Assembly (NCBI GenBank): GCA_049719805.1
Contig: JBNARF010000002.1
Span: forward strand, 342,628 to 406,627
Length of the DNA stretch: 64,000 nt
Origin: Candidatus Hydrothermia bacterium
GTDB lineage: Bacteria; Hydrothermota; Hydrothermia; UBA1063
Direction of reading: 5' to 3'
The notes beneath the pieces are model-generated. The model saw nothing but the letters and a program-made list of their open reading frames with translations, had not been told where the DNA came from and made no database searches. The first letter of the stretch is position 1. Every line of letters starts with the position of its first letter. Both the position numbers and the translations under genes were made by a program. Below are positions 49,262 through 54,630 of this stretch, in pieces.

Positions 49262-49290
49262 TTGACTTTGGGTGAGTTTTACCTTAATAA
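49262..49290 (+). promoter_or_regulatory. possible promoter of the FIST-HK-RR-mglA operon
   Basis: TTGACT (49262-49267), 17 nt, TAATAA (49285-49290). Confidence 0.3.
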
Positions 49291-49349
49291 TATTATTATT
49301 GCAAAAGGAGGGTTAGAAAATTTTCCTGAATGATGATTGGTGGAAAAAG

Positions 49350-52022: not shown

Positions 52023-52038
52023 TTAAGGAGGTGTGATT

Positions 52039-53502
52039 ATGCCCATTAGGGTACTTTTAGTAGACGACGAGGAAGATATTCTTTGGGGGCTATCTGAAGA
52101 GCTCAGTAGAAATAAGATTGAAGTTGATACTGCTACTAATGGACTTGAGGCCCTTGAAAAAATTAAGAAAAAACAATACGACTTTCTTGTGACTGATATT
52201 AGAATGCCAGGCCTCAGTGGTTCTGAGCTTCTTATAGAGACAAAGAAAATTCAGCCGGATATTAAGGTTATTGTGATGACTGCATATGGTTCCGACGAAG
52301 TAAAGCAGGATGTGCTCACCAAGGGAGCTATAAGTTATCTTGAAAAGCCCTTTGATTTTGATCAGATTCTCAATGTAATAATGGAGAAACAGGTAGCCGG
52401 GGAAGAAGAGACTCTTCGTAATCTTACGCTACAGCAATTTTTACAGCTGGTTTCCATGGAGGGAAAGTCTTGTGAGATCGTGGTTAACACATCCGAAGGA
52501 GAAGGAAAGATCTTCTTCGAGGAGGGAGAGGTTATAAATGCATCCATCGGGAAACTAAGGGGTGAAGAAGCTTTTTCAAGGATTCTGAAAGAACCTGAAA
52601 GTTCCTTTAAGGTTAAGTGGGGAAGTCCAAAAGTTAAGAGGGAAATTGAAAAACCATTTCATGCATTGCTATTAAGTGCAGCTGTTCAAAAGGACGAAGA
52701 AGTTGCGTTTAAGGAGGAACTGGGTGGCTTTGATCTCGAAAGTCTATCCGAGCTCTTCAAAGATGAGGGTGTACAAGAAGAAGTAGAGGCTGTACCCGCT
52801 GAAGAGGAGTCTACTTTAGAGCCATATACTGCCCCTGTTGAGGAGGAAATTGAAGTCCCCTTAGAAGAAAGTGTTGAAGAGAAGATTGAAGAGAAGATCG
52901 AAGAGGAAAAGGAACAGCCATCCGTCACCCTGGAAGAAGTTGAGAAACTTTTAGAGGGGATTAGTGAAAGAGTTGAGGAAGCTCCTGCTGCGCCTGAACC
53001 AGAATTTAAAGCAGAGGAAGTAATTGAGAAGCCTGCCGAAGAGGAGGTAATAATTAGAGAGGTTAAGCCCTCTGAAAAAGAATTGAAAGCTGTTGAAGAA
53101 ATAAAACCAGCTGCACCTGCTCCATCTCATGTAAAATTGAGTCAAGAGCTTAAAGAAAAGTTTACTGGTGTGGTAAAAGAAATATCTGATATTCTTGCGC
53201 TTCTTGTGGTTGATTCAGATGGTAATATAGTAAGTTCTTCAGAAAGGGTTTCAACAGGTGTTCCACAGGTTATAAAGATATGGGCTCCCGCTTTAAAGAA
53301 CATAGTGCAGAGTGCCGGTAAGACCTCTATTGGATCTATTAAAGATATAACTTTAACATCCGATAAGTATCACCTTTTAATTACCGATGCTAAAAATGGC
53401 TCAATGCTGATAGTTGCAGTGATACCGGTCAAAAGTATGAAAATTGCCCTTGTTAAAATTAAGATTAAGGAGCTAATAACAGAAATTGCGAAAGTCGTTT
53501 AA
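52039..53502 (+). CDS. response regulator: receiver, DUF4388/PATAN-like domain, ~140-aa Glu/Pro-rich linker, Roadblock/LC7-like C-terminal domain
   Basis: Receiver: LLVDDEED, FLVTDIRMPG, VMTAYG, LEKPF. DUF4388-like: LQQFLQLVSMEGKSCEIVV...GKIFFEEGEVINAS...GEEAF. Acidic linker 52693-53130. C-terminus ALLVVDSDGNIV...ITLTSDKYHLLI...MLIVAVI. ATG 52039 lies 7 nt after AAGGAGG. Confidence 0.8.
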   Translation: MPIRVLLVDDEEDILWGLSEELSRNKIEVDTATNGLEALEKIKKKQYDFLVTDIRMPGLSGSELLIETKKIQPDIKVIVMTAYGSDEVKQDVLTKGAISYLEKPFDFDQILNVIMEKQVAGEEETLRNLTLQQFLQLVSMEGKSCEIVVNTSEGEGKIFFEEGEVINASIGKLRGEEAFSRILKEPESSFKVKWGSPKVKREIEKPFHALLLSAAVQKDEEVAFKEELGGFDLESLSELFKDEGVQEEVEAVPAEEESTLEPYTAPVEEEIEVPLEESVEEKIEEKIEEEKEQPSVTLEEVEKLLEGISERVEEAPAAPEPEFKAEEVIEKPAEEEVIIREVKPSEKELKAVEEIKPAAPAPSHVKLSQELKEKFTGVVKEISDILALLVVDSDGNIVSSSERVSTGVPQVIKIWAPALKNIVQSAGKTSIGSIKDITLTSDKYHLLITDAKNGSMLIVAVIPVKSMKIALVKIKIKELITEIAKVV

Positions 53503-53548: not shown

Positions 53549-54169
53549 GTGCTTATTGATTTCAGAAAACACGAGATAAAGTTTAAAATAGTTTATTATG
53601 GCCCCGGTTTGAGCGGTAAAACTACTAATATAAAGAGAATTTATGAACGTTTCACGGGTAAAAAAGGACAGCTTCTCTCTATCGACACTAAGGGCGAGAG
53701 AACGTTATTTTTTGACCTTCTTCCCTTGCAGCTTTCCATTATAAAAGGTTATAACACTATTTTTAGTCTTTATACTGTCCCTGGTCAGGTATTTTATAAG
53801 CAGGCAAGAAAATTAGTTTTAAGAAATGCAGATGGGGTTATCTTCGTCGCGGATTCTAATCCAGAGAGGCTTGAGGAGAATATCAAAATTTATGAAGAAA
53901 TGCACAACACCCTAATTGAATACGGGATGTGGAGTTCTACAAGAAAGGTCCCCATAATTGTCCAGTATAATAAAAGGGACGATCCAAATGCTCTTCCTGT
54001 ATCATTATTAGAAGAAAAAGTCAACAAATACAAATATCCGTACGTCCTTGCTATAGCAACAGAAGGCAAAGGTGTCTTTCAGACTTTGCAAATTATGATT
54101 AACGAGGTAATTAAAAACTCGCTTAAGCAACAACAACTTCAATTTTTATTACAGCAACAAAAGAAGTAG
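53549..54169 (+). CDS. mglA: MglA-type Ras-like small GTPase
   Basis: KIVYYGPGLSGKTTN, ERTLFFDLLP, YTVPGQVFY (TVPGQ instead of DxxGQ) and QYNKRD. I could align it to Myxococcus MglA from memory over most of its length. GTG start after GGGGGA. Confidence 0.85.
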   Translation: MLIDFRKHEIKFKIVYYGPGLSGKTTNIKRIYERFTGKKGQLLSIDTKGERTLFFDLLPLQLSIIKGYNTIFSLYTVPGQVFYKQARKLVLRNADGVIFVADSNPERLEENIKIYEEMHNTLIEYGMWSSTRKVPIIVQYNKRDDPNALPVSLLEEKVNKYKYPYVLAIATEGKGVFQTLQIMINEVIKNSLKQQQLQFLLQQQKK

Positions 54170-54261: not shown

Positions 54262-54630
54262 TCATGGAAGTGCTTCTCTAAATTTGGTAGCAAACTTGCC
54301 CATAGTAATCTTTGTAACACCCCAATTACCTTTCCTGGTTAGAACTACAATATGTACGTAATTGGAATCCGGGATTATCCTGATTATGATAAAATGTTCA
54401 TTCGTTGTGAGAAGTACATCCTCGCAAACGCCTAAATTTGCATTTTCTGTGGCGCTCATGGCTTTTCTCGCAACTTCTGTAAGATATGCAAGAGGTATTG
54501 AAACGTCGATAGATTCGTCAGTGGTGTGTCCAGTAATGGGTATTGCATCATCAAGGTTTACAATCATGGACATGAGGACTTCATCTACGCTACTTAGAAA
54601 CTCTTGCATCACATCATCAATTTTTGCCAT
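54262..54630 (-). CDS. mglB: Roadblock/LC7-domain protein, MglB-like
   Basis: 122 aa with the Roadblock pattern (LMSMIVNLDDAIPI...NLGVCEDVLLTTNEHFIIIRII...VHIVVLT). Starts 1 nt after the pilT stop. Convergent with mglA. Confidence 0.6.
   Translation of the reverse strand: MAKIDDVMQEFLSSVDEVLMSMIVNLDDAIPITGHTTDESIDVSIPLAYLTEVARKAMSATENANLGVCEDVLLTTNEHFIIIRIIPDSNYVHIVVLTRKGNWGVTKITMGKFATKFREALP

Follow-up and report, generated by a model that had tools for sequence, protein, structure and literature searches.

A Roadblock-containing response regulator as a candidate phosphorylation-controlled partner of MglA in a Hydrothermia lineage apparently devoid of stand-alone mglB

The described systems closest to the locus considered here are mostly built around the Ras-like polarity GTPase MglA and proteins of the Roadblock/LC7 fold. 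In Thermus thermophilus and Myxococcus xanthus, MglB is a stand-alone Roadblock protein of 130-165 amino acids (aa); on binding of the Roadblock dimer, MglA deploys its own Arg and Gln, and the dimer contributes no catalytic residue (PMC3199381). The M. xanthus response regulator RomR, which acts with RomX, belongs to the MglA polarity module and binds a further Roadblock protein, MglC, at nanomolar affinity via a short helix (PMC12719032). RomR/RomX has recently been recast as an MglA-GTP effector and MglB sequesterer, not a guanine nucleotide exchange factor (PMC13408092). In Synechocystis, the PatA-type regulators PixG, PixE and LsiR combine a PATAN domain with a receiver and control type IV pilus polarity, PATAN being the output domain that binds PilB1 and PilC (bioRxiv 10.1101/2021.06.11.447907). 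A 2014 study (PMC4316618) listed fusions of a receiver to an MglB-like domain, as well as PATAN genes in the vicinity of mglA of groups 1 and 5. In the conservons of Actinobacteria, a kinase (CvnA), a Roadblock protein (CvnB), CvnC and a GTPase of the MglA family (CvnD) are encoded together. The present analysis concerns a response regulator of 487 aa encoded next to mglA in a 64,000-nucleotide (nt) stretch of a Candidatus Hydrothermia bacterium genome (GCA_049719805.1, contig JBNARF010000002.1, positions 342,628 to 406,627), hereafter the window. The regulator joins a receiver, a PATAN (DUF4388) domain, an acidic linker and a Roadblock domain in a single polypeptide.

The observations are best read, with modest confidence, as those of an MglA partner of the Roadblock type, placed under phosphorylation control and acting in a polarity module of type IV pili. 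That the Roadblock domain of the regulator is itself part of the GTPase-activating protein (GAP) of MglA is a narrower and doubtful claim. An initial annotation of the locus had proposed a phosphorylation-controlled MglA regulator; comparative support for it comes from the linkage of kinase, regulator and mglA genes across the class, and from the position of mglB being taken by the regulator in genomes without mglB. The architecture is already known; what is new is its mglB-less context beside mglA.

The C-terminal domain is central to this reading. Pfam Robl_LC7 (PF03259) scores below its cut-off of 23 bits, with 14.0 bits in the whole protein (residues 382-459) and 17.3 bits in the domain alone. 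The Pfam model is known to overlook such MglB-like domains, a weakness already remarked by Wuichet and Sogaard-Andersen (PMC4316618). A profile built from 15 C-terminal domains retrieves from the PDB 7yh1 (E 1.5e-8), M. xanthus MglB (6h5b, E 5.6e-6) and CvnB5 (3leq, E 6e-6). A Foldseek search with the full-length AlphaFold2 model returns matches to the receiver only, which resembles Spo0F and other receivers (template modelling (TM) score 0.9), and is uninformative on the remaining domains, so the C-terminal domain was searched alone. Modelled in isolation, it adopts an alpha-beta-beta-alpha-beta-beta-beta-alpha topology, with a predicted local distance difference test (pLDDT) value of 92 and a predicted TM score of 0.86. 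Its top 50 PDB matches are Roadblock-fold proteins throughout. The best is Asgard Roadblock3 (9jue, E 2.4e-9, TM 0.81); others are Streptomyces 3kye, LAMTOR/MP1-p14 and the M. xanthus and Thermus MglB structures 6hjm, 6izw and 6h5b (TM 0.75-0.81). The initial annotation had suspected a Roadblock domain here and left the matter to fold prediction; profile and model agree, and the region is a true Roadblock domain. The matches to CvnB5 and 3kye recall the conservon, where kinase, Roadblock protein and MglA-family GTPase likewise share an operon; the Cvn Roadblock protein differs in standing alone, without receiver or PATAN, and the MglA there is of group 2.

Three other parts had been read from the sequence in the initial annotation, namely an intact receiver, a PATAN segment (placed at about 52414-52677) and a Glu/Pro-rich linker of about 140 residues, and all of them stand (Table 1). 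The open reading frame as listed opens at GTG 52033 (52033-53502, + strand); the likelier start is ATG 52039, adopted because all homologues begin with MP(I/L/K). Pfam Response_reg (PF00072) matches residues 5-114 (E 2.7e-27, 95.6 bits for a cut-off of 30.2). An alignment of 24 homologues shows no variation at D9, D53, T81 and K103 and almost none at D10; therefore the receiver looks able to accept phosphate. The presumed donor for D53 is the adjacent HisKA/HATPase kinase, whose adjacency is kept across families. The PATAN match (53.6 bits, cut-off 25) covers positions 3-121 of the 122 of profile PF14332, and the domain has a pLDDT of about 80 in the full-length model. PATAN and receiver also occur together in PixG, PixE and LsiR, but in reversed order, since the receiver is N-terminal here; the Synechocystis proteins moreover have no Roadblock domain and no MglA partner, and work with chemotaxis-like kinases. 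The fusions catalogued in PMC4316618 share with the regulator a Response_reg domain at the N-terminus, an MglB-like C-terminus that escapes Pfam and the link between PATAN and mglA, which substantiates the association of PATAN/DUF4388 with MglA neighbourhoods mentioned in the initial annotation. What that catalogue does not report is the mglB-less setting, the pairing of pilT with a Roadblock gene described below, and the conserved helices in a long acidic linker.

The regulator gene stands third in a co-directional row of four genes, fist-hk-rr-mglA, which encode a FIST-domain sensor, a histidine kinase (HK), the response regulator (RR) and MglA. The successive gaps are 9, 16 and 46 nt, and one promoter-like site, at 49262-49291, precedes fist. 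As the regulator stops at 53502 and mglA starts at 53549, there is no room for a gene between them; the regulator thus lies next to, and co-directional with, mglA, as MglB would. The identity of mglA, also proposed in the initial annotation, is secured by matches to Thermus MglA 3t12 (E 2.6e-60) and M. xanthus MglA (E 8e-53), and by the P-loop GPGLSGKTT, the catalytic Arg in GERT, TVPGQ and NKRD. The protein retains the catalytic Arg and Gln, which MglB-type GAPs merely position (PMC3199381), together with the hydrophobic beta2 stretch bound by Roadblock GAPs.

Regulator neighbourhoods of relatives across the class were fetched and their open reading frames scored with a profile of each component. 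The families compared are numbered, f1 being that of the window. The kinase gene is found directly upstream of the regulator gene in every family having the module, the hk-RR-mglA linkage is kept across at least six families, and the FIST gene goes with the module in f1, f2, f8 and f10. The order fist-hk-RR-mglA, with no gene between RR and mglA, is that of f1, f2 and f10. In f8 and f3 the order is fist-mglB-mglA-hk-RR-mglC-like, the FIST gene being detected in f8 loci only; f9 and a metagenome relative have hk-RR-mglB-mglA, and f4 and f7 a divergent mglB-mglA. The row mglB-mglA-hk-RR-mglC-like is seen in f3/f8 loci L040, L042, L043, L045 and L048, where the MglC-like protein has 128-129 aa. 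This five-gene row looks like the module in fuller form, and the window would hold a reduced version of it. In f4 (L055:7866-12656, L058:8905-12926), three genes for T2SSE-type ATPases come within 1.2-2 kb after a classical mglB-mglA pair. One is PilT-like (382 aa); the other two encode about 585-614 aa in L055, but in L058 one of them has just 355 aa. This row is a further direct linkage of mglA with a pilus motor in the class.

To probe the absence of mglB, a profile of class MglBs was run in six frames over entire genomes. At E <= 0.01 it matches nothing in 8/8 f1 genomes, in the single f10 genome and in one f2 genome out of three. In the two remaining f2 genomes its matches are only weak (E 4e-6 in a frame of 485 aa and 1e-3 in one of 363 aa), both in long open frames that also match the REC-PATAN region. 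MglB is detected by this profile in each of the 15 genomes tested from f3, f6, f8 and f9 (E 1e-51 to 1e-80), and the MglBs of f4 and f7 reach E 1e-8 to 1e-11. The host genome consists of 3 contigs and is estimated to be 100% complete; Pfam Robl_LC7 over its whole extent matches best the C-terminus of the regulator, plus a single 12-bit match. Together, these searches indicate that the window's family and two related ones (f2 and f10) have lost the stand-alone mglB. In these families the long-linker regulator gene is directly upstream of mglA. In the same clade, the beta2 stretch of MglA (residues ~53-59) reads LFFDLLP, as against (F/Y)FDFLP in all families with mglB. The Leu at the position equivalent to Thermus F59, a hydrophobic contact with MglB (PMC3199381), is confined to the mglB-less clade. 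This Phe-to-Leu change may mark a switch of partner, or simply descent from one common ancestor.

Linker length also differs, from 140-314 residues in mglB-less genomes to 9-99 where mglB is present. In the window, the linker is made up of 33% Glu and 8.6% Pro, with a net charge of -34. Its pLDDT remains below 50, with a disordered stretch of about residues 228-364, save for helices 233-241 and 298-312. These fall within islands 231-245 and 296-312, the sole conserved parts of the linker; the first, with a conservation of 0.73 vs 0.25-0.5 around it, is kept in Hydrothermae-type homologues. This layout evokes RomR, likewise a member of an MglA polarity module, with its N-terminal receiver and long disordered Pro/Glu-rich region carrying short partner-binding helices. 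The resemblance to RomR pointed out in the initial annotation holds as an analogy of layout and goes no further. RomR has no PATAN, no Roadblock and no adjacent cognate kinase, the homology shown here is that of the receiver, and neither linker helix contains a Trp, unlike the C-terminal MglC-binding helix of RomR with its W394. Moreover, given the re-assignment of RomR/RomX (PMC13408092), roles of this kind cannot be read from sequence.

The islands also faintly resemble the tail motifs ELFGxD and LLEGxS of class MglBs (SALSELFGED vs DVQELFGGD; KLLEGIS vs LLEGFS). The motif scores are just 0.8-5.8 bits. In the mglB-less clade, four linkers out of six score above 196-200 of their 200 shuffles, which none of the 11 other linkers does; two f8 linkers come near, their score being reached by 3-4 of 200 shuffles. 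That the islands would be copies of MglB-tail motifs is a weak hint only. Between the two islands, the coding sequence contains a tandem of 12-nt units, GAAGAGAAGATT at 52876-52887 and GAAGAGAAGATC at 52888-52899, encoding EEKIEEKI. The initial annotation had listed this repeat as two near-identical 15-mers; the repeat is present, but the 15-mers are displaced by 1 nt and share 3 nt with each other, and the repetition is trivial. A special role is rejected for what is ordinary low-complexity coding sequence, and no separate function is inferred.

Table 1. Features of the regulator locus (window coordinates).
Feature	Position	Strand	Basis and remarks
FIST-domain sensor protein, 426 aa	49350..50630	+	First in fist-hk-rr-mglA row; Pfam FIST E 2.3e-14, FIST_C E 5.6e-19
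Cytoplasmic PAS-HisKA-HATPase histidine kinase, 460 aa	50640..52022	+	Presumed cognate; Pfam HisKA E 8.3e-10, HATPase_c E 5e-23
Response regulator, 487 aa, REC-PATAN-acidic linker-Roadblock	52039..53502	+	Pfam, AlphaFold2
Receiver domain, residues 1-120	52039..52398	+	Pfam Response_reg; phospho-acceptor D53 at 52195-52197, in FLVTDIRMPG
PATAN/DUF4388 domain, residues 125-221	52411..52701	+	Pfam PF14332 E 3e-14
Acidic, Pro-containing disordered linker, residues 222-361 (140 residues)	52702..53121	+	Composition, pLDDT
Linker island 1, residues 231-245, FDLESLSELFKDEGV, short helix	52729..52773	+	Conservation 0.73; helix 233-241
12-nt tandem GAAGAGAAGATY x2 (+GAAGAG), encoding EEKIEEKIEE	52876..52905	+	Low-complexity
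Linker island 2, residues 296-312, VTLEEVEKLLEGISERV, amphipathic helix	52924..52974	+	Helix 298-312; conserved across alignment
Roadblock/LC7 domain, residues 362-487	53122..53499	+	Profile vs PDB, model, Foldseek
mglA, 206 aa, Ras-like polarity GTPase	53549..54169	+	PDB match; 46 nt downstream of regulator stop 53502
Stand-alone 122-aa Roadblock, MglC-like	54262..54630	-	1 nt after pilT; profile vs PDB, hhalign
PilT-like type IV pilus retraction ATPase, 384 aa	54632..55786	-	Pfam T2SSE E 4.8e-50

In the mechanism proposed, the adjacent FIST/PAS kinase would phosphorylate D53 of the regulator, and PATAN would dock the regulator at the pilus motor or the membrane, as in cyanobacterial PatA-type regulators. 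The tethered Roadblock domain would dimerise, either with itself or with the 122-aa Roadblock protein encoded nearby. The two-helix face of the dimer would then bind MglA-GTP and trigger hydrolysis, as MglB does; alternatively, the dimer may hold the module together, as MglC and RomR do. Phosphorylation of D53 would alter the availability of the tethered Roadblock and of the two conserved linker helices, and an environmental signal sensed by FIST/PAS would reset where MglA-GTP persists. In this clade, engagement of the MglA switch by the Roadblock domain would stand in for the lost MglB. All of this, once dimerisation is reached, is inferred.

The likeness to MglB lies in the Roadblock fold, in the gene immediately upstream of a co-directional mglA and in an MglA equipped with intrinsic Arg and Gln. 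The differences are substantial, and together with several other observations they weigh against a Roadblock domain acting as MglB does. What is in MglB a small stand-alone protein is here the C-terminal domain of a large regulator, and the domain ends with helix alpha3, without the MglB-type C-terminal tail or helix (30-40 residues in class MglBs). The small-residue patch of helix alpha2 is not evident, M. xanthus MglB A64/G68 (Thermus A68/A72) being Lys and Gln here in a HMMER alignment that is unreliable in this helix. In a maximum-likelihood tree, class MglBs are united in one clade (99/98 support), and all regulator Roadblocks fall outside; they are distributed in several long-branched groups that are also outside an MglC-like clade (90/84). 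When profiles of matched depth are compared, that of 13 regulator domains reaches 85% (E 6e-6) with MglB and comes slightly closer to the 122-aa family, at 94.6% (E 7e-8); profiles restricted to the genus are too shallow, and detect neither MglB (0.2% probability) nor the 122-aa family (3.2%). The 122-aa protein is, furthermore, present exactly in the mglB-less genomes and could be the GAP instead. In f3, f8 and f9, the regulator Roadblock coexists with a separate MglB; it is therefore not ancestrally the GAP, and represents an old third Roadblock lineage rather than a fused MglB. A recent fusion of MglB to the regulator is rejected on these grounds, namely coexistence in sister lineages, separation in the tree and profiles that do not favour MglB. 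A second REC-PATAN-Roadblock protein in the host genome (375 aa, G000:C1:847923-848675; L053:7055-8182, - strand) has DUF58/VWA, BatA-like and radical SAM genes as neighbours, with no mglA or pilus genes near, and this neighbourhood gives no hint of its function. Finally, the loss of mglB may have been a single event, and the correlations may therefore rest on as little as one event.

Among the alternatives, the one that survives best, although itself rather unlikely, makes the 122-aa Roadblock protein the real MglB substitute and GAP; the regulator Roadblock would pair with it or recruit it, without touching MglA, in the way that RomR and MglC act as scaffolds for MglB in Myxococcus. The gene for this protein and pilT converge on mglA from the opposite strand. 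The protein has no Pfam match, and JGI labels it 'Roadblock/LC7/MglB family'. Its family profile has one characterised sequence match in the PDB, MglC 7ct3 (E 0.0033, residues 12-119); a broader profile gives 7ct3 at E 0.0036 and an Asgard Roadblock at 0.0011, and neither profile matches an MglB in the PDB. By hhalign it is related to the regulator Roadblock (96% probability, E 1.2e-9). This A3-type protein occurs in all tested f1, f2 and f10 genomes (E 1e-44 to 1e-79), which are exactly the mglB-less ones; elsewhere there is one partial match (E 6.5e-7), in an f9 genome. Within the genus it is far more conserved than the regulator (87-96% vs 67-78% identity). In f3/f8, its orthologue is encoded right after the regulator, which argues for a partnership between regulator and Roadblock, and RomR binds MglC via a short helix (PMC12719032), while the regulator linker has two conserved short helices. 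On the other hand, MglC, its only characterised match, is no GAP; in the tree (90/84) it groups with the f3/f8 proteins that coexist with MglB, and so is not an MglB orthologue. Its gene is translationally coupled to pilT and not to mglA. In the examined f1 and f2 loci it follows pilT, and this conserved operon suggests that the 122-aa Roadblock works with the retraction ATPase. In f2, the pilT/Roadblock pair overlaps by 8 nt (L059:6154-7678; L060:2-1541) and is unlinked from mglA. Two PilB/GspE-like and two PilT-like ATPases are encoded in the host genome; thus a pilus system exists for MglA to control.

For this WOR-3/Hydrothermia-type clade, it is tempting to propose a GAP constituted of a heterodimer of the regulator Roadblock and the 122-aa protein, switched by phosphorylation and with the linker helices as intramolecular plugs or as MglA-docking elements. 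Such a heterodimer would reconcile both readings of the GAP, and is to be regarded as speculative and improbable as it stands.

Less likely still, the regulator would be an effector of MglA or a regulator of the pilus motor whose Roadblock serves for dimerisation or localisation only, MglA relying on its intrinsic GTPase or an unrelated GAP. The distribution of the architecture speaks for it. A homologue search yields more than 100 REC+PATAN proteins of 340-650 aa, and in many families of the phylum their C-termini look Roadblock-like; in P0080, all three Pfam domains appear in precomputed annotation, and P0120 bears the JGI name response regulator/Roadblock. A single-sequence search of the C-terminal domain against 1.8 billion representatives returns four matches and is too insensitive to map distribution. 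The survey of architectures that the initial annotation had suggested thus finds REC-PATAN-Roadblock common and not special to this locus, and the impression of an unusual fusion does not hold, given its numbers in the phylum, the second copy in the host genome and fusions already in print. That the fusion is unstudied does hold; the 2014 catalogue only lists this kind of fusion (PMC4316618). The architecture is generic in the phylum and is found away from mglA, as in the second host copy; in cyanobacteria PATAN by itself suffices as output domain, and RomR/RomX now counts as an MglA-GTP effector and MglB sequesterer (PMC13408092). What stands against it is the tight linkage of hk-RR-mglA in at least six families, an MglA still equipped with the Arg, Gln and hydrophobic stretch of beta2 that known systems use only on Roadblock binding, and the exact mglB position of the regulator. 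In a distant relative, split and fused forms occur in one row (L004:1799-7248), with a REC-PATAN protein of 208 aa, a stand-alone Robl_LC7 protein (120 aa, closely paralogous to the fused domain), a PAS kinase and a REC-PATAN-Roadblock protein of 415 aa.

That the loss of mglB is an assembly or search artefact and the regulator an accessory of a normal MglA/MglB module is very improbable. In favour of it, the genomes were mostly assembled from metagenomes, Roadblock proteins combine short length with divergence, and the f4/f7 MglBs match the class profile far less strongly than the others. Against it, the host genome is estimated complete, the search that succeeds in 15/15 genomes of other families fails at E <= 0.01 in f1, f10 and one f2 genome, the weak f2 matches lie in frames also matching REC-PATAN, Robl_LC7 detects in the host only the regulator and one 12-bit match, and the 46-nt spacer before mglA is too short for a gene.

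To our knowledge, Myxococcus is the sole case in which the route of an outside signal to the MglA polarity switch, via the Frz pathway, is understood. Even in this organism, what RomR, MglB and MglC do remains under revision (PMC13408092). The locus in the window offers a compact natural case, with one sensor, one kinase, one regulator and one GTPase in a small genome without stand-alone MglB, and the link between phosphorylation and the GTPase would be built into one polypeptide. If the tethered Roadblock were the GAP, the locus would provide a minimal and directly testable model for signal-gated bacterial polarity and for the swapping of Roadblock partners. If a phosphorylation-switched heterodimer of the regulator Roadblock and the 122-aa protein were the GAP, it would be the first one for a small GTPase to have its activity directly determined by two-component phosphorylation. 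It would also be a case in prokaryotes of two different Roadblocks acting on a GTPase as a heterodimer, like the Ragulator of eukaryotes. If the regulator were no GAP, the finding would be an ordinary annotation, and the regulator would still represent a large unstudied PATAN-Roadblock class. Its mglB-less context sets this lineage apart as a novel form of the MglA module, well suited to serve as a minimal experimental system.

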